Assembly (NCBI GenBank): GCA_964016885.1
Contig: OZ024741.1
Span: forward strand, 218,178,001-218,242,000
Reading direction: 5' to 3'
DNA length: 64,000 nucleotides
DNA from: Eledone cirrhosa
Lineage: Eukaryota
The position numbers were made by a program, and so were the translations under genes. Below the pieces are notes generated by a model that was given only the letters and a program-made list of their open reading frames with translations, searched no databases and was not told the origin of the DNA. Each line of letters starts with the position of its first letter. The stretch's first letter is position 1. Below, in pieces: positions 14,003 to 42,474 of this stretch.

Positions 14003-14208
14003 GGTCTAAGCAGACGTATTTTGATCGCTCACAGTAAGTCGCTTTATTTGCCTGTTAAAATTATTTGTTGTTAAATATTTCTTGTTGTGTAAGGGATATA
14101 AGCCCTTAGACTTTTCCCCGTGAAGGGGAAAGTATAATATTTGGGCCTTTTGGCCCAAATATTTGAACTTTTTTTACATGTTAAAAAATTTACGAAGAAA
14201 AAAAAAAC

Positions 14209-16049
14209 ATGGCTGAGCCACGCCCGCCAGCGATATGTTTGCTGTCGTGCGACAACGACGTAGAAGTTGAGAGGAGCGCTACAGCGAAATTAACACACAT
14301 TGATAACACAAACACCACCACAAACAATGTAAACAAAGACACCAATGATACCAATGAGAACTCTAATTTTGAAAAAAATGACAGTAACAGCGACAACGAA
14401 AATACAGATAACAAAAAAAAAATAAATAACAAATACAACAACAATATCAACACCACTAATATGAAAACAAATAGCGACAACACCAACAGCAACAATACCA
14501 ACTGCACCGAGAACAACAGTGGCAACAAAGACAACAATGATAACAGCGACAGTGATAACAACAACACCAACAAGAACAACGACAACGACAACAACACCCC
14601 CAACGAAAACAAGAAGAACACTTTCGTTGCGGCAGCAGCAAAAAAGAGGCCATGCTTCAACATGGACCTCTCAAACAAAGATGAAAAGTTGGCCCAGGTA
14701 TGGAAGCTCATCAAGCAAGAGAAAACCTGGGCCAACTTAACTGTCCCGGTAGAAGCTATTGAGACAATGGAGCGCAGAACGGTGCATTACAGATGCATCT
14801 CAGCACAAACCAAAAGGGCAGTTTTAATCCCACAAGAAGATGTCGAAGTCGCCCTGAGATGCATCAGAGAAGACACCGAATACATAGAGAGGGGCAGACA
14901 GTACGGCACCATTTCGGTGTTGTTCAAGTCAGAAGCCCTCGCTATGAAACACGCTATGACTCCTTGCAAAACCAGCAAGGTCATAATGTACCCCTCCCAC
15001 ATGAGGACTGGTCCGGGGTTGACCTGGAGATCCTTCTCCAGATCAGACCCGAGAATGTGAAGACAATCCCGGACCACATCCGCCTTCAGAATGGGACGGT
15101 CATTCACATTATGACCGAAGGCAAAAGGCCGCAGTGTTTTGTTTGTGAGGAAAAAACCCATTTGCCAGCCTTCTGCCCTCAACTGCTGAAAGAGGCAAGG
15201 GGTCGAAAGGCTCCACTGCTGCCGACGCCGGGGCGAGGACCACAACCAACACCGGCACCGGCAAAACCACCAACAACAACACCAATAGAAAGACCACCAC
15301 CAACATTGACCACCAAAGGGGGAAACGAGGAAAACTATCAAATTCCTCCTCCCCCAAAAATCACACACCAATAAAACCATAAACTTACAGACACAGACCC
15401 CTCATCTACGAGTAGTGAAGATGAGGGAAAACCAAAATCCCCCAAAATACAAAAAGGAAACACAAAAAGAAAGAAAAAAACTCAACAAAGCACAAAATCA
15501 CCCACAATAAAAAACGCAGACACCACCCACGCAAACATCTCTCCAATAATACCAACATCAACACCACCATCACCATCACCATCACCATCACCAGAATCCC
15601 CCAAACGCAAACAACCTAAACAGACGCAAGAACAAATATACACACAAACATCTGAAACCACAGACACCGCACTCACAACAAACACAGATACAACCGAAAC
15701 AACACCACCACAGCCACGCAAACAAATAAAATCACACCAACAAAACATACAAAACTTCGTGCTCGTCAGGAGGGCCAACAAGAAACTGATGCCCCTCGTA
15801 GCACGAAGTGAAAATATACAAAAAGAGGAGGACATTTTTAAATCGAGCACATTTCGCGTGCTGGAAGATTTGATTCTGGTGCGAATGTCGCTCGATATAT
15901 TCAAAGAAATACGAGGCAGCTTTCCTCGGGACGTGGGAACCCCGAACGTAAAACCCACTTCAAGACTTTTAAAGGGGTTCCAAAAAGAAACCCCACCAAC
16001 TATGGAGGTCGAACAACCCGACCTTCACAAGAGCCCGGAAGGTAAGTAA
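14209..16049 (+). pseudogene. ORF1 of copy B (N-rich N-terminus, CCHC knuckle), frameshifted
   Basis: ORF-track pieces 14209-15060, 14793-15374 and 15759-16049. Confidence 0.85.
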
Positions 16050-16080
16050 ACCTTCCTCTCTCTTTTTTTAACCTGCCAAC

Positions 16081-19000
16081 ATGGCCGTATTAAGAGTAGG
16101 ATGTTTAAATGTTCGAGGCCTGGGATCGTCCTGGAAGCAGGGTCACCTGCTCAACGACCTCAGGTCTATAGAAATGGATGTAATTGCCGTCAGCGAGACC
16201 AGGATTTCCGACACGCGCGCACTAGCCCCCATTTTCGACGACTATCAGATCTTTGCATCTGTTAGCCGGCCGGGAATGGGAGGCGGGGTGGCAGTGCTGT
16301 TTAGGAAAGGCCTGGATCTCGAGGTAAGGTCGATCTTCCGGGACCCGGACGGGAAGTTGGTGGTCCTGGACGTGAACAATAACGAAGGTGGTGCCTTTAG
16401 ACTGGTGGCCGTCTATGCTCCTACTGGGGCAGGACGGCCGGACTTCTTTAGACGTCTGGAAGCCTTTCTGGGTACGTCTCGCCCTTTACTGTTAGCGGGG
16501 GACTGGAACGGCATCTTAGACGCACGCTGGGACTGTGTAGGAGTATCCGATAGGAGCGGGGGGTGCAAAAGCCTCAAGAACCTGATCAGCCAGTTCCAAC
16601 TGTCTGACAGGTACCGACTAGATTTCCCTAATGCGCCAGTGTGGACCTGGGCTAACCGCATAGGGTCATCTAGATCGTATATAGACAGGATATTCATTAG
16701 GAAAATAGACAGAAATAGTGTAAGCTGTCCACGTTTTGAAACGGTCGCCTATTCAGATCACAAGTTTGTGATCTGTATGGTCGACCTAGATAAAATGTGT
16801 AGGTTAGGACCTGGTTACTGGAAGCTAAACATGTCATTTCCGGCACGTAAGGCTTACAGGGACCAGGTCAACAATTTAGTTAAGAAAAAGTTGACAGGGG
16901 GAATCGTCAACAATAGATGGTGGGGGGGGCTCTCAAAAGAGAGATTAGAGTAATGTCGATAGAGTTTAGCAAAGAAGTAGCATTAGAGAAAAATAGAAAG
17001 GAGGGAGAGTTGGTAGATAAGTTAGACGAGGCTATTGGTAGTGGCATTGCAACTGATGTGCTAGCGGCGAGAATGGCATTAGACCATTTCTTCAATGCGA
17101 AACACGAAGGTTGCATTGTCAGAGCTAAGGCGCGTGCTCTGAGAAACGAGGGTACCAAAGCTGTTCGATGGGCCCGCGTGGCAGAGGCGCAGCGTGGTAA
17201 TAAAACCAAGATTCGGTCTTTGACGGACCGAGACGGTCTCGAGCTGAACGATTCCAAGAGGATGTGTGAGGCCTTTCGCCAACATTTTGCTCGGTTGTTC
17301 GGGGGAAGTGGCGGGTCAGAGATGGTGGCGGACTTCAGTCCCTACCTCGATGGCTTGCCGCAACTCTCGACGGCTGACGCTGGGCGCTGCGAAAGGCCAA
17401 TTACTTCAGCCGAGATTCAGGATGCCCTTGTAGGCTGCATGAGGCGCAAGTCACCCGGTTTGGATGGTCTGCCCTACGAGCTTTACGTAAATATGCCAGA
17501 CTTGTTCTCCAATCTCCTCGAAGCCCTCTACTGCAACTGGCAGCAAAACGGGAGTATTCCCAGTTCTGTGAGCCGGGGCGTAGTGACGCTGATAAGGAAA
17601 GACGAGAACAAGAGGGACGGACACATTAGACAATTTCAGGCCCATAACTCTGCTCAACACAGAGGTTAAGATTTTGGCCAGGATGTTAGCGAAGAGGTTG
17701 GCGCTTGTCGTCGGGGATTTGGTTGGGGAGGCGCAAACTTGCGCAATCCCAACCAGGTCCATACGCGACAACCTCCACCTAATGCGATACATCATAGAGA
17801 GGGTAGGGTGTAAACCTGGCTTCGGTGGGGCTCTGATCAATTTAGATCAATCGAAAGCATTCGATAGGGTCGACCATTGGTACCTGGAGGCTGTCCTCAA
17901 GGCGGCTGGCTTCGGCCCCATCTTCAGAAGCTGGATCGCTGCAATGCACAGCGGCACCTGCTCGATGGTCAAAATTAATGGCCACCTCTCGGAACCGTTT
18001 CAGGTCTCCCGATCGGTCCGTCAAGGGTGCCCTCTCTTCTCCCTTATGTACGTATTGACTCTCGAGCCTTTACTGCGGAAGCTGGAGCTGTTGCAGGGCA
18101 TCCCGCTCAAACCGGGACACGGAAAGGCTCTGTCGGCTTATGCGGACGACATCACCGTGATGGTGTCGGACACCTCAGAAATCGAGGTGGTCGGCAACTT
18201 ATTGGAGGAATATGAAAGGTTGACGGGAGCAAAACTTAACCCGGAAAAGTCAGTAGGCTTGCAACTCGGCACCTGGAGAGGCAAGTCCATGCCGTCCAAC
18301 AGCGTCGTTAGGCGCTGTACGGACGGACGGACCGGTAAAGTAGCTAGGAGTTTGGTTCGGGCCAGACTTCCAGGTGGATAGGAATTGGGACGAGGTGACG
18401 GGCAGGGTAGTCAGTCTCACCCAGAAATGGGCTGGGATAAAGCTATCACTGAAAGGTCGGGCGGAGGTGGCGAACGCGTACATCGCGTCCGTCATCTACT
18501 ACCGTCTGACTGTCGTCCCTTGCCCCCGTTCGCGCTTCGCCATCTTGGAGCGGCTCCTCTTCAAATTCTTGTGGAGGGGTCAGGTTCCGCTGGTGAGGCG
18601 GTCCATCTGCTGCCAGCACCCTCTACGTGGAGGGCTGGGCATGCCGTGGCTAATGATGCGCAGGCACGCGCTGAGGCTGCGGCATCTCCAGATATTCTGC
18701 CTAAACGGTGAACAGGTGTGGTCGCCGTTTGTCAGACGGGCCTTTCTGCAGCTCGTTTCTTTGACTGAGTTGCAGTCCTGGGTCAAGAAGAGACCGAGAC
18801 TGGGTGACTGGCATCTGGAATTTTGCCAGGCACTCACTGCCCTCTACCAGGCGGGCAATGCGGTCAGTAGAACTTCCACTCTCGAGTTCTATAGAGGATT
18901 AGTGGTGGGCAAGTGCGACGACGCACTCGGAGCGGCTCTGGGAGTCAACGAAGTCGAACTAACCAGTCTGTACCGGAGGACTTTCGAGCCAGGGACGATG

Positions 19001-19514
19001 GATAATTTCCAAAAATCCCTCGCTTGGCAGTGCTACCGGGGTGCACTACCGGTTCGAGATAAACTCTACAGGCACGGAAGTGCTATCAGACGGACCTGCC
19101 CGAGATGCGCGCAGAGCGACGAAACCGTTCTGCACGCACTCGTCCAGTGTCCGTGCATTACTGACTTGTGGAGTTATGTTGAACAGCTGTTGTTGCGTGT
19201 AGAACGGATCCGGCTATCGGCCGAGTCCATAGTGAAGATCGACCCGCCGCCTTCTTTTGGCCAGGAAGGGCAGGCAATTTTCCTCTGTCTGGTGGCAGTA
19301 GCGAAAGAGGTTGTATGGTGGATGAGGTTGAAAGGACTGAAGACAGACACTTTTCTCTTCGGCCAATCCCTCATCAACTTTTTCAAGTTTCACTTGGAAA
19401 GGAAGGTGAGGGTGGAGAGAGAAGTGCTCCCCCCCCAGTACATTTGCTGAAAGGTGGGTGAATGTGGCGAGAATGGCCCGTGTGAGTGGGCCTACTCTGG
19501 TCATGCGGCTGTAG
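16081..19514 (+). pseudogene. ORF2 of copy B (APE-RT-zf-RVT), frameshifted
   Basis: NVRGL, GDWN, YSDH, KSPGLDGLP, QGCPL, YADD, CPRCAQSDETVLHALVQC. Confidence 0.93.
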
Positions 19515-19803
19515 GTAGGTAAATTTGAAGAGGAGAGGGGTGCCCTTCCAAAGTTCTCTCGAAGCGTCGGGTCGTTCAGGACTGGTGGGGTACCTGAGCG
19601 AACCCTAGGTGGTCATCCCCCCTATTGGGAATGTTTTCTTGTTGTAATTTTCTTGTTACTTTATTGTTACTTTGTTATTGTTACTTTGTTTATTCATATT
19701 GTTTACTCGATTTTTCTGTAAAACCCCACTGTCCCAGTCTTTTGTATTGTCCCCTATATGTCGGCCCTTGTGGCCAATAAATGAAATCATTATTATTATT
19801 ATT

Positions 19804-22800
19804 GAATGCTATGGTTGACGGAGGCTCGGCTCTGTAAGGTATTGTAAATTTTGACCACTATAACAATTGTAAATTGTTTAAAACTGTAACCATATTGTAG
19901 ACAAAAACACCTTCCTCCTCGTGAGAGGGGTTTTTCTGCCCGTTATTTGGCCCTTCGGGGTTAAATAACCGCTTATTGGGGTTTTGTGCCCAATATTTAT
20001 TTTAAACAAAAAAACAACATGGCCACGAAAAAGAATTTTCATAGGTCACTCCCACTCATTCCGTCTTCTTCCTCAATCGTCACTACAGCAGAGAGAAGAT
20101 TGTCTCTCTCCCTCCTTTCTCTAAATGTGTCTCTCTCCCTCCCTCCCTTCTCTTTTGCAAGCGACGCCAGTAAAGAAAAATAGTTTACAAAATCACGTGA
20201 AAAACATGGAAGATTTCTCCACGACGACGACGACGAAAAAGGTGTGCGGGAAATACGAAAACCCATTTCATTCGTCTGACGTCATGAATAATAGCAGTAG
20301 CAGCCGTAATAACAGCAGCAGCAGCAATAGTGACGAGGAAAACAACGGTAGCAGCCGAAACAGCATCAGCGGCAGCATAAACAACAACAGCATTAGCAGC
20401 AACAGCAACAACAACAGCAGCAGCAGCAACAACAACAACAACCACAGCAACAGCGGCGGCGGCAGTCGTAGTACCTGCAGCAACAACAAAAGTAACAGCA
20501 GCTCTGACGACAACAACAACAACAGTAGCAAAGAAAAACCAATCTCGTTTGCAGGTATCGCAAAGAACCTGGAAACCATCCTCATAACAAATGAGGAATT
20601 AGAGGAAGCGAAGAAGATGGTGACGAAAACCGGACACCGAGCAATCTGCAAGGTAGCCGAAAATTTTTTCGAAACCCAACAGCACTGTACGGTCACGTAC
20701 CGTACAGTAAGAACAAAATCCCATAGAGTTGAAAGAGCCACAGAGGCTCAAATACAAAAAGCCTTAGGGTCTGTGTGGCAGCGTAAAACGCATATCACCC
20801 GAGGCAAGAAATATGCCACCGTAGACGTGCTTTTTGCCACACCCCAGGAGGCAAAGGCTCAATCCTTAGTGACCCTAAGAAGCGAGGAAATGGTGTTGGT
20901 GCCCTCCTACTGCGGGCAAAAAATTGTGAGGGTCAAACTGACCCCCCCCCCCCCCCGGGATGGCCTCTTCTTGGCTGGCCGCGTCTGTTCTCTTTGGAAT
21001 CGAGGACAAAACAACTGTACTGCAAGTACAGAAAGAGTAAGAGAAGATTGGATCGGCACCTCCATTGAGATGTTAATCCAAACCAACCAGGAGTGCATCG
21101 AAGCTATCCCGGATGTGATAGACTTCGATAACGGCACTCAACTGCCCATAAGTGTTGAGGGCAAACGCCCGAAATGCTTTCGCTGTGGATCGAAGACTCA
21201 CCTCAGGGCCTTCTGCAACGAGAAGACCCTGAGAAAGGAGAAAACCCCCTCCTTCCGAATCCGGCTCCACTGCTACCAGTAACAGGACAAGCGGCAACCA
21301 GGAACGATAGGTCCGTGGCACCCATACCCACGCCACGGAAATCAAGAACAGCAGCAGCAGTGGAAGTATTAACAACAACAACAGTAATACCAAATGCAGC
21401 TGCCACAGAGACTCCACTGCAAACATCACCAACAACAACAAGTGAAAGAGTGGAGCTGGTACCACTCCCCGACCTCACAGAATCAGACATGGAGTGTGAG
21501 GTGGGAGAGGGATGGCAAAAGGTCGTAAGAAGGCACAAACGCAGAAGCAGCGCATCGTCGCCTTCGAAAAGGGAGGAAAGAAATGAGAAAAGGGTAAAGG
21601 CTACTGCAAAGAGACTCACAGCAGCAACATCACTAACACCATCACCAGCCACACTAGCACCACCATCACCACCGGTGACAACCCCACCGCCAACAACAAC
21701 AACACCTTCAAAACCACCACCACAAGCAGCAACATCGCAAACACAACAACAAAACACACACACCCAGCAACAACGACAAGAAAATAGCAGAACCCCACCC
21801 CCAGAAAAACAAATGCACGGCAATAAATACACACAACAAGAAACTAATGACTTACATAATTGAACACACAGACATTTCACAGCACGACTACATAATACCA
21901 GCACCAATCAAAACGCCAACGAACATAGGACTGCTAAAAATAGCACAGAAACAATACACAAACATTAAAACGAAATTCCCCAACGCAGTTGGTGATTTCA
22001 GAGACCTAGGAGGGACTCTCAACCGGAGAGTATATTCGGACATACTCATAGAAGAGCCGACGACCAGCCGAAGGGACGATTCAACGGTCCCTTCACCAGA
22101 AATCAAGTGAAAAGGGATGGAGAAACCATCCTTCCTCTACGAAAAGTACGGTAAGTGGTCTTTCCCATCTTTTCCACTCTATTTTAAACATGACCTCACT
22201 CAGAATAGGCAGCATAAATGCGCGTGGCTTGGGGTCGTCATGGAAGCAGGGTCACCTGCTCAACGATCTCAGGTCACTAAACATAGATGTAGTGGCCTTC
22301 AGCGAGACCAGAATCTCCGAAGCACGGGCCTTAGCACCGATCTTCGGCGGCTACGATGTGTACGCATCTCCCAGCCGTCCTGGATCGGGGAAGGAGTTGC
22401 TGTGCTTTTTCGGAGAGGTTTGGATCTCGCCATACGGGCCATCTTCCTGGACCCAGAGGGTAAGTTGGTGGTGCTGGACGTGACCAGCGGAGACGAGCAA
22501 GCTTTCAGGCTAGTGGCCGTCTATGCGCTGACAGGAGCAGGGCGGCCTGATTTCTTCCGGCGTCTGGAGACCTTTCTTGGAACGTCCCGCTCTTTAGTGT
22601 TAGTGGGCGACTGGAACGGGATCTTAGATGCACGCTGGGACTGTGTGGGATTAGCGGATAGGGGAGTAGGGTGCAAGAGCCTCACCAACCTGCTCAGGCG
22701 TTTTGAACTGTCTGACAGGTACTGATTGGATTTCCCGAATGTGCCAATGTGGACTTGGACAAATCGCATATGGTCATCCAGATCATATCTAGATAGAGTA

Positions 22801-25800
22801 TTTTGTAGGGAAATAGATAGGTCTAGCATAGGCTGTCCACAATTCAAGATAGTCAGCTACACGGACCACAAATTCGTGATCTGTGTGCTTGACTTAGATA
22901 GGCTTCATAGACGAGGACCCGGCTACTGGAAGCTAAACGCGTCCTTACCAGCGCGCAAGGCCTACAGAGAGCGGATTAGCGAACTAGTTAAGCGGCCGTT
23001 GACGGGGGCCATCGTCAACAACAAGTGGTGGTTTGCTCTGAAAAGAGCGATTAGAATAAAATTCATTAGGTTTAGTAAGGCTTTAGCAATAAAGAAAAAT
23101 AGAGCAGAGGGAGAACTAGTTAGAAAATTAGACGAGGCGCTTAGCAAAGGCATCGCGACCGACGTGCTTACGGCGAAATTGGCCCTTGACCAATTCTTCA
23201 ATGCAAAGCACGAAGGCTGCGTTGTCAGAGCTAGGGTGCGTGCTCTCAGACACGAGGGGACGAAAGCCGTTCAATGGGCCCGAGTGGCGGAGGCGCGTCG
23301 TGGAAACAAAGCCACGATCCGGTCTTTGGAGGACCACGACAGGCGCATGCTACTCGATCCCGGGCAAATGTGTGAAGCTTTTCAGCGACACTTCGCTCAG
23401 CTGTTCGGGGGCAGCGGTGGGCCGGGTCGAGGGATGGACTTTAGTGTCTACCTCGACGGACTGCCGCGGCTCTCGGCCACTGAGGCGGAGTGTTGCGAAA
23501 AGCCGATAACAGGCGCTGAAGTACGGGAGGCTGCACAAGGGGTAAATCGCCTGGTTTGGATGGTCTGCCTTATGAACTTTACGTACAGATGCCAGACTTG
23601 TTCGGAGGCCTCTTGGCGGACGTCTACTGAAACTGGCAACAGAATGGGAGTATTCCCAGCTCTGTGAGCCGAGGTGCGGTGGCACTGCTGAGAAAGGATC
23701 CGAACAAGGGGGAAAACATAGATAATTTCAGGCTCATAACTCTGCTAAACACAGAGTTCAAGATTTTGGCCAAGGTGCAAGCAAAGAGGTTGGCGCTTGT
23801 CGTTGGTGTCTGCGCCATTCCCGACAGATCCATCCACGACAACCTCCACCTCATGCGATACATCGTAGAGAGGGTAGCTAGGGAACCTGGCACGGGTGGG
23901 TCCTTGATCAATTTAGATCAGTCGAAAGCTTTCGATAGGGTCGACCATCGTTACCTAGCGGCAGTCCTGAGGGCGGCTGGCTTTGGGCCCGTCTTCAGAG
24001 GCTGGATCGCTGCCATGCACAGCGACATCTGCTCTGTGGTGAGAGTGAACGGTCACCTTTCGGAACCGTTCAACATCATGCGCTCGGTCCGCCAAGGATG
24101 TCCCCTCTCGTTCATCTTGTACGTATTGACTCTCGAGCCATTACTGCACAAACTGGAGACGTTGAGGGGGGTCCCGCGCGAACTAGGATGCGGAAGTTCC
24201 GTGTCAGCATATTCGGACGATGTCACCGTAGTGGTGTCGAACGCCAAACACATCGAGGCGATCGGCACTACACTAAGAGAATACGAAGCGGTGACAGGAG
24301 CAATGATCAACCAGGAAAAGTCAGTGGGCCTGCAGCTCAGCACCTGGAGAGGCAGGTCCATGCCGTCCAACAGCGTCGTCGGGCGCTGGACGGACGGACC
24401 GGTTAAATTGCTTGGGGTCTGGTTCGGTCCGGAACTCCAGACGGACAAAAACTGGGACGAGGTGACGAGCAGAGTGGCTTCTCTCACCCAGAAATGGGCC
24501 GAGAGGAAGCTATCCCTGAAAGGTCGAGCGGAGGTGGCTAACGCGTACATCTCGTCCGTCATCTACTACCGCCTGACCGTCGTACCTTGTCCTAAGCCCC
24601 GCCTGACTGCGCTGGAGCGTTTGCTCTTTCGCTTCTTGTGGAAGGGACGCGCTCCGATGGTCAGGCGGTCCATCTGCTGTCAACACCCGCTACGTGGAGG
24701 ACTGGGCATGCCGTGGCTGATGATGCGCAGACACGCGCTCAGGCTACAACATCTCCACCTCTTCCTCGACGGTGATCAGGTGTGGTCGCCGTTTGCTAGA
24801 CACGTTTTTCCCCAGCTCGTCTCCTTGACGGAGCTGCAGTCCTGGGTCAAGCGAAGACCGAGAGGGAGCGCTTAGAGACTGGAATGTCTTCAGGCACTCA
24901 CAGCCCTCGACCAATCGGGCAATGTGATCGGTGGAAACTCCACCTTGGCGTTCTATAGGGGATTAGTGGAGGGTAAGAGCGACGACATACTTAGAGAAAC
25001 TCTAGGCGTCGACGAAAATCAACTAGCCAATCTCTTCGGAAGGACTTTCGGGCCGGGGCCTATGGACAACTTCCAGAAATCCCTGGCCTGGCAGTGCTAC
25101 CGGGGTGCTTTGCCAGTTCGGGATAAACTCTACAGGCATGGAGGTGCCGTCAGCTGGGCATGTCAGAGATGCGCACAGGGCGACGAAACCGTTCTGCACG
25201 CACTCGTCCAGTGTCCGAGCATTGCTGACTTGTGGGTTTATGTCGAACACCTGCTGTCACGTGTAGGACGGATTCAGCTATCAGCTGAGTCCATCGTGAG
25301 GATTACCCCGCCCTCTTCCTTTAGCCGGGAAGGGCAGGCAGTTTTTATCTGTCTGGTGGCCATGGCGAAAGAGATAGTATGGTGGACACGTTTGAAAGGG
25401 CTGAAGACGAGCACTTACCTCTTCGGTGATGCCCTGATTAACTTTTTCAAATTTCATTTGAAAAGGAAAATCAGGGTAGAGAGGGAAGTGCTCTCTTCCC
25501 AGCATTTTGTTGAAAGATGGGTGAGAGAAGCAAGTATGGCCCGAATGAATGGGCCTTCTCTGAGTATGTGTCTGTAAATTAAAGGTGGAAAACTGGGAGA
25601 GGGCACTTGACCTGGTGGTCAGGGTCACTGTGGTCTTTTAATGGGCTTTCTCCACAAATGTCCCTCGGAAGTCTCCCCCCTATTGGGGAATTTTTCTTTG
25701 TTATTTTATTACATCCTCTGTTTTTTACACGCAGAAATGCCCATTTGTACCGTCCTGTATTGTCCTGTACTGTCCTTAATGTCTACTTTATGTAAACCCT

Positions 25801-25818
25801 TGTGGTCAATAAAGAAAA

Positions 25819-25855
<37 letters not shown>
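19804..25855 (+). mobile_element. Tx1/L1-clade element, copy C (full length, disabled)
   Basis: Begins immediately after the (ATT)n tail of B; ORF1 about 20019-22154, ORF2 22190-25577 fragmented; ends AATAAA..(ATT)n. Confidence 0.95.
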
Positions 25856-26070
25856 GAATGCCATGGTTGACGGAGGCTCGGCTCTGTAAGGTATAGTAAT
25901 TTTTAACCGTTAAAACAATTGTAAATTGTTTAAAACTTGAACCAAATTGTTGATAAAGACACCCTCCTCCTCGTGAGAGGGGTCTTTCTGTCCGTTATTT
26001 GGCCCTTCGGGGTTAAATAATCAGTTATTGGGGTTTTGTACCCAAAATTTCATTTTAAACAAAAAACAAC

Positions 26071-28167
26071 ATGGCTACGAAAAAGAAATTTCATACGTCA
26101 CTCCCACTCATTCCGTCTTCTTCTTCCTCAATCATCACTACAGCAGAGAGAAGATTGTCTCTCTCCCTCCCTTCTTTAAATGTATCTCTCTCCCTCCCTT
26201 CTCTTTCGCAAGTGACGAAAGAAAAGAAAAGTCTCGTGCAAAGCGTGCAAGGTTTCTCCACGACGACGACGACAGCGACGAAACAGGTGTGCGGGAAATA
26301 CGAAAACCCAGTTCATTCGTCTGACGTCAGGAATAATAGCAGTAGCAGCCGTAATAACAACAGCAACAGTGACAATGAAAACAACAGTAGCAGCCGCAAC
26401 AGCATCACCAGCAGCATAAACAACAACAGCATTAGCAGCAGCAACACCAACAACAACCACAGCAACAGCGGCGGAGGCAGTAGTCGTAGTACCTGCAGCA
26501 ACAACAAAAGTACCAGCAGCTCTGACGACAACAACAACAGCAGAGAAAAACCAATCTCATTTGCAGGTATTGCGAAAAACTTGGAAACAATCCTCATAAC
26601 AAATGAGGAATTAGAGGAAGCGAAGAAGATGGTGACAAAGAACGGACACCGAGCAATCTGCAAGGCAGCGAAAAATTTTTTCGAAACCCAAGAGCACTGT
26701 ACGGTCACGTACCGTACAGTAAGTACAAAATCCCGTAGGGTGGAAAGAGCCACAGAGGCCCAAATACAAAAAGCCTTGGGGTCTGTGTGGCAGAGGAAAA
26801 CGCACATCACCCGAGGCAAAAAATACGCCACCGTAGACGTACTTTTTGCCACACCCCAGGAGGCAAAGGCCCAATCAGTAGTGACCCTAAGGAGCGAGGA
26901 AATGGTGTTGGTGCCCTCCTACTGCGGGCAAAAAATTGTGAGGGTCAAACTGACCCACGTCCCCCCCGGAATGACCCCTTCTTGGCTGGCCGCGTCTGTC
27001 CTCGTCGGAATCGAGGACAAAACAACTGTACTGCAAGTACAGAAAAAAGTAAGAGAAGATTGGGTCGGCTCCTCCATTGAGATGCTAATCCAAACCAACC
27101 AGGAGTGCATCGAAGCTATCCCGGATGTGATAGACTTCGATAACGGCACTCAACTGCCCATAAGTGTTGAGGGCAAACGCCCGAAATGCTTTCGCTGTGG
27201 ATCGAAGACTCACCTCAGGGCCTTCTGCAACGAGAAGACCCTGAGAAAGGAGAAAACCCCCCTCCTTCCGAATCCGGCTCCACGGCTACCAGCAACAGGA
27301 CAAGCGGCAACCAGGAACGATAGGTCCGTGGCACCCATACCCACTCCACGGAAATCAAAGACAGCAGCAGCAGTGGAAATATTAACAACAACAACAGCAA
27401 TACCAAATGCAGCTGCAACAGAGACTCCAGTGCAAACATCACCAACAACAACAAGTGAAAGAGTGGAGCTGGTACCCCTCCCCGACCTTACAGAATCAGA
27501 CATGGAGTGTGAGGTGGGAGAGGGATGGCAAAAGGTCGCAAGAAGGCACAAACGCAGAAGCAGCGCATCGTCGCCTTTGAAAAGGGAGGAAAGAAATGAG
27601 AAAAGGGTAAAGTCTACTGCAAAGAGACCCACAGCAGCAACACCACCAACACCATCACCACCCACACCAGCACCACCATCACCACCGGCGACAACCCCAC
27701 CGCCAACAACACCTTCAACACCACCACCACAAGCACCAACATCGCAAACACAACAACAAAACACACACACCCAGCAACAACGACAAGAAAATAGCAGAAC
27801 CACACCCCACCCCCAGAAAAACAAATGCACGGCAATAAACACACACAACAAGAAACGAATGACTTACATAATTGAACACACAGACATTTCACAACAGGAC
27901 TACATAATACCAGCACCAATCAAAACGCCAACTAACATAAGACTGCTAAAAATAGCACAGAAACAATACACAAACATTAAAACGAAATTCCCCAACGCAG
28001 TTGGTGATTTCAGGGACCTAGGAGGAACCATCAATCGAAGAGTATATTCAGACATTCTCTTAGAAGACCCGACGACCAGCCGAAGGGACGATTCAACGGT
28101 CCCTTCACCAGACGATCAAGTGAAAAGGGATGTAAAAACCATCCCTCCTCTACCAAAAGTACGGTAA
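26071..28167 (+). CDS. ORF1p, gag-like nucleic-acid-binding protein (698 aa)
   Basis: Open frame; N/S-rich N-terminus, central folded domain, CFRCGSKTHLRAFC (Cx2Cx4Hx4C), P/T-rich linker, basic RRHKRR. Confidence 0.9.
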   Translation: MATKKKFHTSLPLIPSSSSSIITTAERRLSLSLPSLNVSLSLPSLSQVTKEKKSLVQSVQGFSTTTTTATKQVCGKYENPVHSSDVRNNSSSSRNNNSNSDNENNSSSRNSITSSINNNSISSSNTNNNHSNSGGGSSRSTCSNNKSTSSSDDNNNSREKPISFAGIAKNLETILITNEELEEAKKMVTKNGHRAICKAAKNFFETQEHCTVTYRTVSTKSRRVERATEAQIQKALGSVWQRKTHITRGKKYATVDVLFATPQEAKAQSVVTLRSEEMVLVPSYCGQKIVRVKLTHVPPGMTPSWLAASVLVGIEDKTTVLQVQKKVREDWVGSSIEMLIQTNQECIEAIPDVIDFDNGTQLPISVEGKRPKCFRCGSKTHLRAFCNEKTLRKEKTPLLPNPAPRLPATGQAATRNDRSVAPIPTPRKSKTAAAVEILTTTTAIPNAAATETPVQTSPTTTSERVELVPLPDLTESDMECEVGEGWQKVARRHKRRSSASSPLKREERNEKRVKSTAKRPTAATPPTPSPPTPAPPSPPATTPPPTTPSTPPPQAPTSQTQQQNTHTQQQRQENSRTTPHPQKNKCTAINTHNKKRMTYIIEHTDISQQDYIIPAPIKTPTNIRLLKIAQKQYTNIKTKFPNAVGDFRDLGGTINRRVYSDILLEDPTTSRRDDSTVPSPDDQVKRDVKTIPPLPKVR

Positions 28168-28202
28168 GTGGTCTTTCCCATCTTTTCCACTCTATTTTAA
28201 AC

Positions 28203-31200
28203 ATGACCTCACTCAGAATAGGCAGCATAAATGCGCGTGGCTTGGGGTCGTCATGGAAGCAGGGTCACCTGCTCAACGACCTCAGGACACTAAACATAGA
28301 TGTAGTGGCCATCAGCGAGACCAGAATCTCCGAGGCACGGGCCTTCGCACCGATCTTCGGCGGCTACGATGTGTACGCATCTCCCAGCCGTCCTGGATCG
28401 GGTGGAGGAGTTGCTGTGCTTTTTCGGAGAGGTTTGGATCTCGCCATACGGGCCATCTTTCTGGACCCAGAGGGAAAGCTGGTGGTGCTGGACGTGACCA
28501 GCGGAGACGGGCAAGCTTTCAGGCTAGTGGCCGTCTATGCCCCGACAGGAGCAGGGCGGCCTGATTTCTTCCGGCGTCTGGAGACGTCCCGCTCTTTAGT
28601 GTTAGTGGGCGACTGGAACGGGATCTTAGATGCACGCTGGGACTGTGTGGGATTAGCGGATAGGGGTGGAGGGTGCAAGAGCCTCACCAACCTGCTCAGG
28701 CGTTTTGAACTGTCTGACAGGTACCGATTGGATTTCCCGAATGTGCCAATGTGGACTTGGACAAACCGCATAGGGTCATCCAGATCATATCTAGATAGAG
28801 TATTTTGTAGGGAAATAGATAGGTCTAGCATAGGCTGTCCACAATTCAAGATAGTCAGCTACACGGACCACAAATTCGTGACCTGTGTGCTTGACTTAGA
28901 TAGGCTTCATAGACGAGGACCCGGCTACTGGAAGCTAAACGCGTCCTTACCAGCGCGCAAGGCCTACAGAGACCGGATTAGCGAACTAGTTAAGCGGGCG
29001 TTGACGGGGGCCATCGTCAACAACAAGTGGTGGTTTGCTCTGAAAAGAGCGATTAGAATAGAATCGATTAGGTTTAGTAAGGCTTTAGCAATAGAGAAAA
29101 ATAGAGCAGAGGGAGAACTAGTTAAAAAATTAGACGAGGCGCTTAGCAAAGGCATTGCGACCGACGTGCTTGCGGCGAAATTGGCCCTTGACCAATTCTT
29201 CAATGCAAAGCACGAAGGCTGCGTTGTCAGAGCTAGGGTGCGTGCTCTCAGACACGAGGGGACGAAAGCCGTTCAATGGGCCCGAGTGGCGGAGGCGCGT
29301 CGTGGCAACAAAGCCACGATCCGGTCTTTGGTGGACCACGACGGGCGCATGCTACTCGATCCCGGGCAAATGTGTGAAGCTTTTCAGCGACACTTCGCTC
29401 AGCTGTTCGGGGGAAGCGGGGGGCCGGGTAGAGGGATGGACTTTAGTGTCTACCTCGACGGACTGCCGCGGCTCTCGGCCACTGAGGCGAAGTGTTGCGA
29501 AAAGCCGATAACAGCCGCTGAAGTAAGGGAGGCAATGACTGGCTGCACAAGGGGTAAATCGCCTGGTTTGGATGGTCTGCCCTATGAACTTTACGTACAG
29601 ATGCCAGACTTGTTCGGAGGCCTCTTGGCGGACGTCTACTGCAACTGGCAACAGAACGGGAGAATTCCCAGTTCTGTGAGCCGAGGAGCGGTGGCACTGC
29701 TGAGAAAGGATCCGAACAAGGGGGATAACATAGACAATTTCCGGCCCATAACTCTGCTAAACACAGAGTTTAAGATTTTGGCCAAGGTGCTAGCAAAGAG
29801 GTTGGCGCTTGTCGTTGGTGGTCTGGTGGGAGAGGCGCAGACATGCGCCATTCCCGACAGATCCATCCACGACAACCTCCACCTCATGCGATACATCGTA
29901 GAGAGGGTAGCTAGGGAACCTGGCACGGGTGGGTCCTTGATCAGTTTAGATCAGTCGAAAGCTTTCGATAGGGTCGACCATCGTTACCTAGCGGCAGTCC
30001 TGAGGGCGGCTGGCTTTGGGCCCGTCTTCAGAGGCTGGATCGCTGCCATGCACAGCGACATCTGCTCTGTGGTGAGAGTGAACGGTCACCTGTCGGAACC
30101 GTTCAACATCATGCGCTCGGTCCGCCAAGGATGTCCCCTCTCGTCCCTCTTGTACGTATTGACTCTCGAGCCATTACTGCACAAACTGGAGACGTTGAGG
30201 GGAGTCCCGCGCGAACTAGGATGCGGAAGATCCGTGTCAGCATATGCGGACGATGTCACCGTAGTGGTGTCGAACGCCAAACACATCGAGGCGATCGGCA
30301 CTACACTAAGAGAATACGAAGCGGTGACAGGAGCAATGATCAACCAGGAAAAGTCAGTGGGCCTGCAGCTCGGCACCTGGAGAGGCAGGTCCATGCCGTC
30401 CAACAGCGTCGTCGGGCGCTGGACGGATGGACCGGTTAAATTGCTAGGGGTCTGGTTCGGTCCGGACCTGCAGACGGACAAAAACTGGGACGAGGTGACG
30501 AGCAGGGTGGCTTCTCTCACCCAGAAATGGGCGGAGAGGAAGCTATCCCTGAAAGGTCGAGCGGAGGTGGCTAACGCGTACATCGCGTCTGTCATCTGCT
30601 ACCGCCTAACCGTCGTACCTTGTCCTAAGCCTCGCCTGACTGCGCTGGAGCGTTTGCTCTTTCGCTTTTTGTGGAAGGGACGTGCTCCGATGGTCAGGCG
30701 GTCCATCTGTTGTCAACACCCGCTACGTGGAGGGCTGGGCATGCCGTGGCTGATGATGCGCAGGCACGCGCTCAGGCTACGACATCTCCACCTCTTCCTC
30801 GACGGTGATCAGGTGTGGTCGCCGTTTGCTAGACGCGTTTTTCCCCAGCTCGTTTCCTTGACGGAGCTGCAGTCCTGGGTCAAGCGAAGACCGAGAGGGA
30901 GCGCTTAGAGACTGGAATGTCTTCAGGCGCTCACAGCCCTCGACCAATCGGGCAATGTGATCGGTGGAAACTCCACCTCGGCGTTCTATAGAGGATTAGT
31001 GGAGGGGAAGAGCGACGACGTACTTGGGGAAACTCTAGGCGTCGACGAAAATCAACTAGCCAATCTCTTCGGAAGAACTTTCGGGCCAGGGCCTATGGAC
31101 AACTTCCAGAAATCTCTGGCCTGGCAGTGCTACCGAGGAGCCTTGCCAGTTCGGGATAAACTCTACAGGCATGGAGGTGCCGTCAGCCGGGCATGTCCGA

Positions 31201-31610
31201 GATGCGCGCAGGGCGACGAAACCGTCCTGCACGCACTCGTCCAGTGTCCGAAAATTGCTGACTTGTGGGTTTATGTCGAACACCTGCTGTCGCGTTTAGG
31301 ACGGATCCAGCTATCATCTGAGTCTATCGTGAGGATTGCCCCGCCCTCCTCCTTTAGCCGGGAAGGGCAGGCAGTTTTTATCTGTCTGGTGGCCATGGCG
31401 AAAGAGATAGTATGGTGGACACGTTTGAAAGGGCTGAAGACGAGCACTTACCTCTTCGGTGATGCTCTGATTGACTTTTTCAAATTTCATTTGAAAAGGA
31501 AAATCAGAGTAGAGAAGGAAGTGCTCTCTTCCCAGCATTTTGTTGAAAGATGGGTGAGAGAAGCAAGAATGGCCCGAGTGAATGGGCCGACTCTGAGTAT
31601 ATATCTGTAA
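28203..31610 (+). CDS. ORF2p APE endonuclease/reverse transcriptase/zf-RVT (1135 codons) with one in-frame TAG at 30906-30908
   Basis: ORFs 28203-30908 and 30957-31610 are in the same frame; a 12-nt in-frame deletion (FLGT) is present in the endonuclease relative to other copies. Confidence 0.9.
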
Positions 31611-31870
31611 ACTAAAGGTGGAAAACTGGGAGAGGGCACTTGCCTTGGTGGTCAGGGTCATTGTGGCTTTTTACTGGGCTTTCTCCACAAATGTCCCTCG
31701 GAAGTCTCCCCCCTATTGGGGAATTTTTCATTGTTATTTTCATTGTTATTTTTGTTACATCCTCTGTTTTTGTTTTTTTACACGCAGAAATGCCCATTTG
31801 TACCGTCCTGCATTGTCCTGCACTGTCCTTAATGTCTACTTTATGTAAACCCTTGTGGTTAATAAAGAAA

Positions 31871-31910
<40 letters not shown>

Positions 31911-31911
<1 letters not shown>

Positions 31912-32164
31912 ATAATTGTTTCTACCTTTTGGCACAAGGCCAGCAATTACCCAGTACATTACTGGCGGTAGATTGGAAGTATCGGTAGAGTGTCGGACGC
32001 TATGCTTTCCAGCATAGTTACGTCCCTTTACGATCTGAGTTCAAATCCCGCCGAGGTTGACTTTGCCTTTCATCCTTACGGGGTCGATAAAATAAAGTAC
32101 CAGTAATGCACTGGGTAATTGCTGACCTTGTGCCTAAAGTAGAAACAATTATTATTATTATTAT
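31911..32164 (+). mobile_element. SINE (31966-32164) preceded by an inverted copy of a SINE 3' end (31911-31965)
   Basis: gagttcaaatcc B box, same core and tail as the 13776 SINE; 31911-31965 is the reverse complement of ccagtaatg..ggccttgtgcc..agaaacaattatt. Confidence 0.85.
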
Positions 32165-35100
32165 CGGTCTGTTCGGACGCTTTTTGCTCGCTCCCAGTAA
32201 GTCGCTTTATTTGCCTGTTAAAATTTTTTTGTTGTTAAATATTTCTTGTTGTGTAAGGGATATAAGCCCTTAGACATTGCCCTGTGAAGGGGAAAGTATA
32301 ATATTTGTGCCAAAAGGCCCAAATATTTGAACATTTTACTTTAAAAAAAAAAAGTTTAAAAAGACAAAACATGGCTGAGCAACGCCCCCCACCCCACCCC
32401 AGCAATATGTTTGCTGTCGTCTGACAACGGCGTAAAAGTTGAGAGGAGGGTTAGTGAAATTCATACAGCAAACACCACCACAAACAACGTGAACAAAGAC
32501 AACAACACATTTTGAAAAAATTACCACACCAACTACAACAATAACAGCGTCAACCAAAATACAGACAACAGAAAAAAATGACAACAAATGCAACAACGAT
32601 ATTAAACACCACTAACAAGAAAATAAACAACGACAACACCAACAGCAACAATACAAATTGCACCGAAAACAACAACAACGGTGGCACCAAAAACACAACC
32701 AACTACAACAGTGATAACAGCAACAACACCAACAACACCATTTGTAGCAGTAGCAACCGCAACAACACCAACAACAAGACCAGTAGCGGCAGTAATAATG
32801 GTGTGGCCCGAAATATAGAAACAGTGCTAGTCGCAGAGGAGGAGATGGCAGTCGCAAGAGCCATGGCATCGAGAAACGACAACAGAGTTTCCTTGAAACC
32901 TCCACCCGATTTCTTCAAAGACCAGCAACTGTGCACGGGACCAGCAACTGTGCACGGGATCCGACATGGAGTGTGAGGCGGGAGGGAAGTGGCAAACGGT
33001 CTGCCTCAAAAAAGAAAAAAAAAAGAAAAAAAACCCTAGCTTCACCCTTCAAAAGCTAAGGCAGACAAATAGGGGTAAAGACTGCAAGGAGACTTGCAGC
33101 AACACCACCACCATCACCACCAACAACCACCACACCGCCACCAGCATCGCCAAAAACACCAACATCGCAAACACAACAAAACACACACACCCAACAGCAA
33201 CAACAAGAAAACAGCAAGAAAATTGCCCCTCCCCCCAAAAAGTACACAGCCATAAACATGGCAAATAAAGAACTCCTACAACATATAAACAGCACACAGA
33301 CATCACAGAAAAAAAACTACTACACCCCACCAACACCAAGAACTCTACCGACAAACATAAGCATCATTGAAATCTCAATAGAACATTACACATTTTTAAA
33401 GCAAAAATTCCCCAACGCAGTTGGGGACTTCAGAGGGTCGGTTACCAAGAGGATATACACCAATATCTTCTTGGAAACACCCATGACCAGCTAAAGGGAC
33501 GGTTCTACGGTCCCTTCACCACACGATCAAGGTAAGTAATCCTTTCTCACTTACCCCGTTTCTCATCCAATATGGCAATACTTAGAAATGGAGTCATCTC
33601 GGAAGCAGGGTCACCTGCTCAACGACCTCAGGTCACTAAACATAGATGTGGTGGCCATCAGCGAGACCAGAATCTCCGAAGCACGAGCCTTCGCACCGAT
33701 CTTCGGCGGCTACGATGTATACGCATCTCCCAGCCGTCCAGGATCGGGGGGAGGGGTTGCCGTGCTTTTTCGGAGAGGCTTGGACCCAGAAGATAAGTCG
33801 GTAGTGCTGGACGTGACCGGCAGCGAAGGCAATGCTTTCAGGCTAGTAGCCGTCTACACCCCAACAGGGGAAGGACTCTCAGATTTCTTCAGGGGTCTAG
33901 AGACCTTTCTTGGAACGTCCCGCTCTTTAGTGTTAATCGGCAACTGGAACGGTATCTTAGATGCACACTGGGATTATGTGGGGCTAGTAGACGGGGCAGG
34001 AGGGTGTAAAAGCCTCAGCAACCTGCTCGGACGTTTTGAACTGTCTGACAGGTATATACTGGATTATCAGAATGTGCCAATGTGGACATGGGCAAACCGC
34101 ATCGGGTCATCCAGATCGTATTTGGATAGGGTATTCTGTAGGGAAACAGATAAGGCTAGTGTAGGTTGTCCACAATTTAAAGTAGTGGACTACACGCACC
34201 ATAAATTTGTGATCTGTGAAGTTGACTTAGATAGACTCCATAGGAAAGGGCCCGGCTACTGGAAGCTGAACGCGTCGTTCCCGGCGCACAAAGCTTACAG
34301 AGACCGGATTAGCGAATTAGTTAAGCCTGCGTTGACGGGTGCAATCGTTAACAAAGGTGGTGGTTTACCCTGAAAAGGGCTATTAGAGTAGAATCGATAA
34401 GGTTTAACAAAGGAGTAGTGATAGAGGAAAATAGAGTAGAGGGAGAGTTAGTTAGAAAGCTAGAAGAGGCGTTTAGGACAGGAAACGCAACCGACGTGCT
34501 TGCGGCGAGATTGGCACTCGACCAATTCTTCAACGCAAAGCATGAAGGCTGCGTTGTCAGAGATAGAGCGCGTGCTCTAAGACACGAGGGGACGAAAGCC
34601 GTTCAATGGGCCCGGGTGGTGGAGGCGCGACGTGGCAACACGTCCACAATTCGGTCTTTGCCTGATAAAAACGGGCGCATGTTGCTCGAACCGGAGCAGA
34701 TGTGTGCGGCTTTTCAACAGCACTTTGCTCAATTGTTCGGGAGCGGCGGCGGGCCGGATGGGAGTATGGACTTCGGTGCATACCTCGACGGACTGCGAAA
34801 AGCCGATAACAGCAGGTGAAATGCAGGGCGCGATGTCTGACTGCATGAGGGGTAAATCGCCAGGTTTGGATGGTCTGCCCTACGGGCTTTATGCGTATAT
34901 GCCAGACTTGTTCGGCGACCTCTTGGCAGATGTCTACTGCAAGTGGCAGCAGAACGGGAGCACTCCCAGTTTTGTGAGCCGGGGAGCGGTGGCGCTGCTG
35001 AGAAAAGACCGGATCAAGGGGGACGTTAAAGACAACTTCAGGCCCATAACTCTGCTAAACGCAGAGTTTAAGATTTTGGCCAAGGTGTTAGCAAAGAGAT

Positions 35101-37127
35101 TGGCGCTTGTCGTCGGTGATCTGAGGTGAGAGGCGCATATATGCGCCATTCCGGACAGATCCATCCACGACAACCTCCATCTCATGCGATACATCATAGA
35201 GAGGGTGGTTAAGGAACCTGGCACGGGTGGGGCCCTGATCAACTTGGATCAATCTAAATCATTTGATAGGGTCGACCATCGGTACCTGGCGTTTTTAGGG
35301 GCTGGATCGCTGCGATGCACAGCGCCATCCGCTCGATTGTGAGGGTGAATGGTCACTTGTCGCAGCCTTTCAGCATCATGAGCTCGGTCCGACAGGGTTG
35401 CTCACTCTCGTCCCTCTTGTACGTACTGTACTGGCCCTCGAGCCGTTGTTGCACAAATTGGAGACGATGAGGGGGGGGGGGGGGTCCCACGCGAACTGGG
35501 ATGCGAGAGATCCGTGTCAGCTTACGCCGACGACGTCACCGTAGTGGTGTCGAGCACCAAACACGTCCAGATGCTCGGCATCGCTCTCAAGGAATACGAA
35601 ACGGTGACAGATGCAAATATAAACCAGGAAAAGTCGGTCGGCTTGCAGCTCGGCACCTGGAGAGGTAAGTCCATGTCGTCCGACAGCGTCGTGGGGCGCT
35701 GGACGGAAGGACCGGTTAAATTGCTCGGGGTCTGCTTCGGTCCGGACCTCCAGATGGAGAAAAACTGGAGCGAAGTGACGAGCAGGGTGGCCTCTCTCAC
35801 CCAGAAATGGACCGAGAGAAGGCTGTCTCTGAAAGGTCGGGCGGAGGTGGCGAATGCGTACATAGCGTCCGTCATCTGCTACCGCCTAACTCTGATCAAA
35901 ATAGAGCGCCTTCTCTTCCGCTTTTTGTGGAAGGAAAGTGCTCCCATGGTCAGACGATCCATTTGCTGTCAACACCCGTTGCGTGGAGGACTAGGCATGC
36001 CGTGGCTGATGATGCGCAAACATGCGCTGAGGCTGCGACATCTCTGGTGCTTCCTTGACGGTGAACAGTTGTGGTTGCCGTTTGCCAGACGCGCTTTTCC
36101 CAGCTCATCTCCTTGACGGAGCTGCAGTCCTGGATCAGGAAAAGACCGAGGGATAGCGCTTGGAAGCAGGAATGTTTCCAAGCGCTCATCGCCCTCTACC
36201 AGCTGGGTACTAGTATCGGTGGATCATCCACCTCGGCGTTCTATAGAGGGCTAGTGGCGGGTAAGAGCGACGACATTCTCGGGGAGACCCAGGGCGTCGA
36301 AGACGATTAGCTGTTCGCTCTCTTCAAGAGAACTTTCAGACCGGGGCCTATGGACAACTTCCAGAAATCCCTGGCCTGGTAGTGCCACCGGGTAGCGTTG
36401 CCGGTTCGGGATACGCTCTACAGGCACGGAGGTGCTGTCAGCCGAGACTGTCCGAGATGCGCGCAGGGCGACGAAACCGTCCTGCACGCACTCGTTCAGT
36501 GTCAGAGAATTGCTGACTGGTGGAGCTATGTCGAACAGCTCCTGTCGCGTGTAGGACGGATCCAGCTATCGACTGAGTCCATTGAGCAGATAGCCCCGCC
36601 ATCCTCCTTTAAAGAGGAGGAAGGGCAGGCAGTTTTCATCTGCCTGGTGGCCATGGCGAAAGGGATTGTGTGGTGGACAAGGTTGAAAGAGTTGAAGACG
36701 AACACTTTCCTCTCCGGCCAATCCCTGATTAACTTTTTCAAGTTTCACTTGAAGAGGAAAATCAGGGTGGAGAGGCAAGTGCTGTCTTCTAGTAAGTTTG
36801 TTGAAAGGTGGGTGAAAGTGGCGAGTCTGGTTCGAGTGAACGGGCCCGCTCTGAGTATACACCTGTAGACTGAGTAATGGGAAAAGTGAGAGAGGGTGCT
36901 TGCCCTGGTGGTCAGGGTGGCCGTGGTCTTTTGTGTGGTTTTCACCACGAGTGACACTGGGAGGTTTCCCCCTTCTTGGGGAATTTTTGTTTGAATTTTT
37001 TGGATTTCTAGTCCAATTTTGTTATAACCTATTTAATCGACCAAAACCCACTTTGTATCGCCCTGTACTGTTCTGTGCCGTCTCTAATGTTTTTCTTCGT
37101 GTCAGCCCTTGTGGCCAATAAAGAAAC

Positions 37128-37180
<53 letters not shown>
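32165..37180 (+). mobile_element. Tx1/L1-clade element, copy E (chimeric, internally deleted, disabled)
   Basis: 5'UTR homologous to B; ORF1 about 32371-33540 shortened; ORF2 33572-36868 fragmented; AATAAA..(ATT)n tail. Confidence 0.93.
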
Positions 37181-38245: not shown

Positions 38246-38256
38246 ATATATATATA

Positions 38257-38776
38257 GTTAAAAGAATAGAGGTGTAACACACAAGTTATTATATATTGGT
38301 AAACGGAATAGAAAATGCTGACAAATTGTTCACAGTTGAAAAATGGTTTAATTAGGAATAAAAGAGTATTAGTGATTGTATGGGTTAGTATTCAGTTGTG
38401 GTTTTAAGTTTTTAAGTTTTTACCGGTTGCGCATTTCTAAATGGTTTTCAAAAATAATTTTGAGATAGAGTGTCCGTGCTGTTTGCTCTGATCTGATTAG
38501 TTTTGGAAATTCTACTTGTTTTTATGTTAAAAAAGTGGCTCCAGCGTTATTTTTGTGTTGCAAAAATGCTTGTGGTCAAAACAATTTTGATTGGTCGGTA
38601 GAGGTCATGTGAATGTAAAAAGTTGATTTTGCGCCAAGACTGTTTTTATGTTAAAATGTTAAAAAAGTGGCTCCAGCAAAAATTATTGGTCAAAACAATT
38701 TTGATTGGTCGGTAGAGGTCATGTGGATAAAAAATTGGTTTTGCGCCAAGATTGAGAAATGACTCTTTCACAACAA

Positions 38777-38828
<52 letters not shown>

Positions 38829-41700: not shown

Positions 41701-41705
<5 letters not shown>

Positions 41706-41709
<4 letters not shown>

Positions 41710-42474
41710 ATCGGAAAATCTAATATATGTATTAACTTGTTCAGGTTGTCGAGAACAATACATAGGCCAGACCAAAAACAGCCTCCGCCAACGCATGACT
41801 GTCCATAGATCCCAAATTAAAATACGGGAATACAGGAAAATACCACTGAGTAAACACATTGATACCTGTGCCGCCCAAAATCATCCCAACTTCAGAATCT
41901 TTCCCCTCTACAAATTTAAAGATAATGCCACCCACACCCAACGCATCAGCAAGGAATCTTACTTCATTAACAAATACGGACCCCGTCTAAACACTTCTCC
42001 CTAAGACGAACCCACAACATACACACGTCAACATACATACCTACATCAGCACACATCTCTACCCACATATAAACACAATGACACACGTAAACACACATGC
42101 TCTATGGTGCATTACAAAAAAATATATGTGCATATATATGTATGTATATATGTATATATATATATGTAGTGAATGTATGTATGTGTGTATATATATATAG
42201 TGAATATCATTTCACACCTTTTATTGTTAAGATTTTTGATGTTCTATTAAGAGAACCGATTTTACTGAAAAAATCGAATAATGTACACCATTTTACCAGG
42301 GGGAAAAAAATACTGGTCCACCCACACACATACACACACACATATATACACAAACACATACACACGCGTACATCAACATACAAAGAGGCTTATACACACA
42401 CACACACACACACACGCACTTCTCCGTATAAGACAAAAGCTGAAAAATATCTTTTGACCTTCGAATGACTCTGC

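Follow-up and report, generated by a model that had tools for sequence, protein, structure and literature searches.

A predicted hairpin among many conserved stems along ORF2 of a LINE array in Eledone cirrhosa

The LINE array and its neighbours

The window (the whole 64-kb stretch of Eledone cirrhosa DNA analysed here) holds five copies, A to E, of an L1/Tx1-type LINE. At the start of the window, copy A is encoded on the minus strand; the remaining four form an array with (ATT)n repeats between copies:

14003..37128, plus strand: LINE array, copies B, C, D and E, head-to-tail, 5-6 kb each
13955-14002, 19789-19803, 25820-25855, 31873-31908, 32148-32162 and 37129-37179: (ATT)n runs separating the array copies
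26059..28167, plus strand: ORF1 frame of copy D, A-rich, without Pfam match; mean folding z -0.9 +/- 0.5
28203..31610, plus strand: ORF2 of copy D, with AP endonuclease, reverse transcriptase (RT) and zf-RVT domains; folds 17.5% better than dinucleotide shuffles

Judged by its sequence, the element is an L1/Tx1-type LINE on three grounds: the domains of ORF2 (Pfam matches PF03372, PF00078 and PF13966), a two-ORF layout in which a 702-aa ORF1 frame precedes ORF2 (copy D), and a microsatellite target preference, all four array copies in this window sitting between (ATT)n runs. Its closest named homolog, at 66% identity, is from Argonauta hians. A pattern anchored outside the hairpin described below has 8,615 matches in the 3.0-Gb genome. 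Target-specific LINEs of the Tx1 clade are already known to insert into microsatellites, Kibi into (TC)n and Koshi into (TTC)n (PMC4494074), and L1-Tx1 families have been recently active in Octopus vulgaris (PMC13282606). The present element shares with these two ORFs, the combination of AP endonuclease, RT and zinc finger, and microsatellite insertion; it differs in its repeat, (ATT)n, and ORF2 RNA structure is absent from the available parts of those descriptions (PMC4494074, PMC13282606).

Several other features surround the array. An abundant short element lies directly upstream of copies B and E (13776-13954 and 31972-32147). At its 3' end it is similar to the tail of the LINE and likewise terminates in (ATT)n, and it may be mobilised by the LINE. 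An inverted piece of the short element's 3' tail, at 31912-31965 immediately before the forward copy, has what we take to be the appearance of a twin-priming inversion. A degraded GC-rich (59%) fragment without Pfam match (5330-7310, plus strand), presumably the C-terminal part of a restriction-like-endonuclease retrotransposon by its motif, served as a folding control. A Penelope-like element with RT and GIY-YIG domains (39396-41378, minus strand) is bracketed by long inverted duplications at 38250-39695 and 41705-43243. Within the LINE itself, the sequence GTAAGT overlaps the ORF1 stop at 28163-28169 in copy D, about 22163-22170 in copy C and about 33530-33537 in copy E.

The hairpin in copies and lineages

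A predicted hairpin with a register of 14 pairs around a 6-nt loop aligns without gaps in all five copies:

36154..36187, plus strand: hairpin of copy E (lineage E1, a dead copy), 14-pair register and 6-nt loop
30899..30932, plus strand: hairpin of copy D (lineage A), TAG at the Trp codon producing an A-C mismatch
24866..24899, plus strand: hairpin of copy C (lineage A), TAG plus one further private break
18802..18835, plus strand: hairpin of copy B (lineage B1), mismatches at pairs 6 and 13
316..349, minus strand: hairpin of copy A (lineage A), 14 of 14 pairs, TGG

The original prediction placed a covarying hairpin at 36155-36186 of copy E, which corresponds to pairs 2-14 plus one private extra pair, and described it as a 14-bp stem closed by a GNRA loop. 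The fold is confirmed: copy E forms a 14-pair stem with a GGAA loop at -23.3 kcal/mol (z -7.2, none of 200 shuffles as good). The loop, however, is private to this copy. It occurs in 1 of 29 E1 copies, 26 of which carry UGGAAU, and the GNRA tetraloop is accordingly rejected as a family motif; the C>T change that perfects pair 12 in copy E is found in 2 of the 29. Copy E is dead, with a frameshift just upstream of the hairpin and stops downstream. Its hairpin lies inside ORF2, about 940 nt upstream of the element's 3' end; a stringent LINE 3' recognition stem-loop, a structure of the 3' UTR near the tail, was rejected on this position.

The other stems that had been claimed are also present. 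The one at 18801-18836 in copy B folds with z -4.3, and the common stem of copies A, C and D exists in one ungapped register (z -3.5 in D and -2.3 in C). When folded in 400 nt of context, copies A, B, D and E have most of their stem pairs at a probability of 0.8 or more. Pairing in copy C is less secure: two pairs are broken and three have probabilities of 0.5-0.65. Among 147 copies sampled without the hairpin pattern, 136 keep at least 11 of the 14 pairs; the hairpin is present in most copies, as the original prediction requires. Rfam covariance models run over 13400-37400 at E<=1 gave no match at the hairpins and two chance-level matches elsewhere, and a tRNA scan gave nothing relevant. A small predicted stem just upstream of the hairpin in copy D (about 30875-30895) recurs in the consensus fold of seven lineages.

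The UAG that faces a C inside the stem of copies C and D presumably invites comparison with the ADAR-recoded amber/Trp site of hepatitis delta virus, and stop recoding by editing was considered and rejected. Genome-wide, 28 exact 22-mers carry TAG and 2,839 carry TGG, so that the TAG of copies C and D is best read as decay, and the hairpin is independent of any stop, as had been argued. An ADAR-type stop-recoding hairpin requires a UAG fixed in a replicating lineage; here TAG is found in about 1% of lineage-A copies, and the intact frames of the element read through TGG. No clear excess of A>G changes was found in the copies (445/83,339 for A>G, 393/80,387 for T>C); the counts were 105/18,935 at paired adenosines and 208/41,074 at unpaired ones.

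We assigned copies to lineages from a tree with the hairpin masked, which gave F, B1, B2, B3, E1, E2, A and the old lineages G and H; A2 was separated from A on the basis of the hairpin variant that it carries. Decay excluded G and H from the analysis (259 and 430 of 722 codons unresolved); two near-identical duplicate pairs, single decayed copies and windows with too few lineages were also left out. Eight lineages, 2-25% apart with an omega of 0.23, were used over the whole of ORF2 on fixed tree topologies, F being left out for the first 200 codons. Intact ORF2 frames of 1,150 codons occur in lineages B3 and A. B3 is very young: its copies are about 99.7% identical, many retain the intact 1,150-codon ORF2, and they often stand in tandem 5.84 kb apart (for example L119, most of L131-L160 and L309-L312). 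An older B subfamily (L361-L400) has Ala for Asp in the hairpin, as does NCBI protein P0001 at that residue; this old paired subfamily was left out of the null comparisons. A metagenome scan returned 80 loci at 22-32% identity, too distant for alignment at the hairpin; such loci served as folding controls, 12 in a dicodon-shuffle test and four in a window-local test. Four sets of contigs from sequencing runs yielded fragments only.

Local pairing exceeds a codon-aware null, in line with the covariation that had been claimed. Across the eight lineages 98 of 112 cells are paired, against 87.8 in a null that preserves codons and each column's conservation pattern (P=0.013, 1000 draws); for third-position pairs the count is 34 of 40 against 23.8 under the conservation-preserving null. 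Because third codon positions face each other in the stem, a synonymous change on one arm can be compensated by one on the other. Pair 4 is C-G or U-A with both changes synonymous, and pair 7 is C-G, U-G or U-A, also synonymously. At pairs 11 and 12 both arms have changed and the amino acids with them. One residue of the original prediction needs correcting: the Phe of copy B is private, the B family having Cys. Copy B differs from lineage A by double changes at pairs 4, 11 and 12. In all, four pairs show double changes, the most of any of 18 stems, although the lineages are few and related and these four amount to about four events. Breaks affect pairs 1 and 12 in E, 6 and 13 in B and 11-14 in F, which re-forms its inner stem by a one-base slip. 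Pair 6 is intact in the old B subfamily; the A-G mismatch arose later and persists in B1, B2 and B3.

Other comparisons give a similar picture. In ten natural copies 87.9% of cells are paired, and double-change cells number 10 against 4.4 in shuffled data; counted as pairs, double changes show no excess over that control (4 against 3.2). A codon model that holds the amino acids fixed gives 74.0 paired cells of 98, where 84 are observed (P=0.011), and holding one lineage fixed at a time gives P=0.003-0.034. Since this synonymous null already pairs 74 of 98 cells, the protein sequence accounts for most of the pairing, with a modest excess beyond it. From codon reasoning, the residues of the Argonauta homolog would allow at most 8 of 14 pairs in the hairpin register.

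Folding along ORF2

According to these models, the hairpin is one of about 18 stems conserved in place across the eight lineages. Of the 18 ungapped stems, three surpass it in pairing and none in double changes. Its energy z in sliding scans is -2.0 (family-wise P 0.97) and -2.05, behind many other peaks; an earlier value of -2.8 came from a homogeneous codon model, which overstates z-scores, and was replaced by the conservation-keeping null. ORFs holding a stem as good as this one numbered 2 of 150 when relabelled and 1 of 150 when column-shuffled, with thresholds set after seeing the hairpin. Other conserved structures, in copy D coordinates, include:

28237..28290, plus strand: stem, 94% of cells paired, one double change
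28854..28895, plus strand: stem, 88% paired, three double changes
29631..29696, plus strand: strongest conserved fold by energy, z -5.4, family-wise 0/249
29819..29864, plus strand: stem, 89% paired, three double changes
30358..30393, plus strand: stem, 86% paired, three double changes, some altering amino acids
30557..30609, plus strand: long conserved hairpin, inner part 91% paired, two double changes
31201..31237, plus strand: conserved hairpin over the CCHC zinc-finger codons
31472..31502, plus strand: conserved hairpin near the ORF2 end, two double changes

The excess extends over the whole ORF. The 18 stems compare with 9.0 in the null (maximum 17), and their 23 double-change pairs with 5.6 (maximum 14). 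Watson-Crick stems number 17 against 3.8 and 2.4 in two nulls (0/150 each), compensated pairs 12 against 1.5 and 0.5, and 35 of the 228 windows fall below z -2, where the null predicts 3.9 and never exceeds 9. The MFED of three natural ORF2 copies is 21.7%, 18.1% and 17.5%, against 5.5% for the 59%-GC fragment and 1.7% for Penelope, the two controls in the window; these values come from non-overlapping 350-nt fragments with eight dinucleotide shuffles each, and the sole GC-matched control is that one degraded fragment. With 120-nt windows the values are 14.5-21.3%, and for RT frames from four distant metagenome loci they range from -2.8 to 6.7%. Overall, ORF2 folds 15-22% better than dinucleotide shuffles, and two other elements in the window 0-6% better. 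Whole-ORF dicodon shuffling can be inflated by composition gradients, and window-local shuffles were preferred; under local synonymous shuffles the excess shrinks to 15.0% in A and 5.6% in B3, and one distant control reaches 6.5%. Each ORF2 is predicted to form 60-61 hairpin loops with 67-68% of its bases paired, the longest uninterrupted helix being 14-15 bp.

Origin and possible role of the stems

Stems of this kind may arise from selection on the RNA or from the mutation process. If the template switches between inverted repeats that lie close together, during replication by the host or during reverse transcription of the element itself, stems could be made and repaired, including the adjacent, amino-acid-changing pairs 11-12. 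Such switching can create compensated stems without selection, and the available parts of two reports describe it for RNA hairpins (PMC8794818) and for coding DNA (PMC8604942). The antisense strand indeed also folds in excess, and for stems of 9 bp its excess is the larger (5 against 1.6; sense 8 against 5.8). Several tests likewise show no preference for G-U over A-C: single-lineage stems gave 296 against 354 and 262 against 326, and Watson-Crick-defined stems 0.52 against 0.51. In most tests, however, the excess favours the sense strand: the energy excess is greater there, at -1.8 against -1.24 kcal per 50 nt, a gap matched in 0 of 103 nulls (P=0.10 for the 3' 2.1 kb alone), and long stems that allow G-U number 10 against 1.9 in the null for sense and 1 against 0.7 for antisense.

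The fate of individual mutations also bears on this alternative. Fixed lineage differences break single-lineage stems about 18% less often than the null (952 against 1,156, summed over 12 non-independent comparisons), whereas private mutations in copies break stems just 3% less often, which is not significant (2,237 against 2,298). That stems are spared by fixed differences and not by private mutations favours selection in replicating lineages. Private mutations that perfect a stem, which template switching should supply, show no clear excess (250 against 232, P=0.13). Counted by eye, the pair is restored at the A-G mismatch of the B family in 46 of 66 variant copies; of 39 mapped (40 of the 46 were fetched), 37 are old, 10-21% from B1, and two fall in a young clade. 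The seeming excess of repair is thus due to the ancestral paired subfamily, and the mismatch itself has persisted through B1, B2 and B3. We infer that the ORF2 stems are maintained by selection acting on the sense RNA and not by a bias in mutation. A mutation bias confined to reverse transcription is a possible source, and template switching as a whole has, in our estimate, roughly a one-in-six standing among the explanations.

Folding might instead control expression, by compacting or slowing an ORF2 flanked by a splice donor at the stop of ORF1; the output of ORF1 relative to ORF2 would be set in this way. The donor-like GTAAGT at the ORF1 stop recurs in lineages A, B1 and B3 and in copies C, D and E, and excess folding, strong in ORF2, drops to a weak level in ORF1 and is missing from the 3' UTR (two windows). 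Against it, ORF2 shows no depletion of cryptic donor, acceptor or polyA motifs. We consider this explanation unlikely, a shade behind template switching. The lack of depletion also led us to reject the masking of splice or polyA signals by folding.

The original prediction saw in the hairpin a dedicated cis element for RNP assembly, ribosome pausing or editing. An element of this kind, lying between the RT and zinc-finger coding regions and acting through a conserved loop that binds a protein or pauses the ribosome, would account for the largest number of double changes among 18 stems, for an ORF-wide P of about 0.01 on a combined criterion and for a nearly invariant loop. The loop, though, encodes a conserved Leu-Glu-Cys, and even homologs with about 36% identity retain the Glu-Cys. 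In E, B and F the inner stem is broken or shifted in register, mismatches within the stem are tolerated in young lineages, and there is neither an Rfam match nor an A>G footprint. The energy z is only about -2 (family-wise P 0.97) in an ORF with some 18 conserved stems, the GNRA loop is private, and the hairpin appears not to be encodable in the Argonauta homolog. The observation of the hairpin is confirmed and the original interpretation is partly supported, but a dedicated element for RNP assembly, pausing or editing is not supported and is a less probable reading again. Chance combined with protein constraint, conserved residues happening to encode complementary bases, fits the 74 of 98 cells paired by the amino acids alone and an energy that is not significant after ORF-wide correction, and is nevertheless very improbable given the third-position pairs (34 of 40 against 23.8) and the ORF-wide excess of stems, compensated pairs and folding energy.

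We therefore favour, with a probability of about 0.5, a reading in which the hairpin is one tile of an ORF2-wide folding selected in replicating elements, a folding that would likely keep the RNA compact and shield it from host silencing. Selection would keep the whole ORF2 RNA in short local hairpins. Such local self-pairing would keep antisense copies and small guide RNAs from annealing to the transcript, and short helices would avoid the long double-stranded RNA on which Dicer or ADAR act. That the hairpins form in the cell is suggested by the folding models. The nature of the benefit is the least certain part: shielding is proposed here by analogy with GORS of viruses, together with general knowledge of piRNA, Dicer and ADAR.

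As in viral GORS, MFED is high along the coding region, with many consecutive short stem-loops not tied to gene ends, and shielding is the proposed role in both cases (PMC7642675, in its available parts). The 17.5-21.7% of the LINE ORF2 matches or exceeds the values given there for SARS-CoV-2 (15%) and HCV (7-9%), figures that are comparable, with a different protocol (PMC7642675). The element differs in being a nuclear retrotransposon mRNA and not the genome of a persistent positive-strand RNA virus, and we describe it as GORS-like rather than as a member. Furthermore, about 18 LINE stems keep their position across lineages 25% apart, unlike the poorly conserved pairings described in the accessible parts of the GORS paper (PMC7642675).

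Among retrotransposons, hairpins at the end of human L1 ORF2 are already known: position-conserved stem-loops have been described there (PMC5135761), and like ours they are predicted, fall within the 3' part of the ORF2 of a LINE and have a putative function. As far as the available text of that report goes, the human case concerns two regions with repeat-containing loops and includes neither a codon-aware covariation test nor an ORF-wide folding excess (PMC5135761). Structural work on R2, from what is accessible of it, covers the 3' RNA only (PMC11194090). In a literature search at abstract level, with partial coverage of subscription journals, we found no report of ORF-wide conserved structure in ORF2 of Tx1 or other LINEs. 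LINE RNAs are usually described as having structured untranslated ends and poorly folded, A-rich coding regions.

A bolder version, which we offer tentatively and hold to be clearly less probable than the reading above, is that the RT gene of an octopod LINE has acquired, over its entire length, RNA structure on a genome scale in the manner of viruses, exceeding that of most RNA viruses and trading amino-acid changes for pairing, and that the element thereby conceals its RNA from silencing by small RNAs and from the highly active ADAR system of cephalopods. More generally, a striking hairpin in one dead copy may be part of a larger pattern, and this calls for caution. The bolder version, if correct, would help explain how several lineages have reached thousands of copies and are still active. 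A LINE whose 3.4-kb ORF2 matches coronavirus RNA in strength of folding, its stems preserved by compensated and even residue-changing substitutions, would carry GORS beyond viruses to a transposon, and its many lineages, with young intact members, would offer a natural system for asking whether pervasive folding shields RNA.
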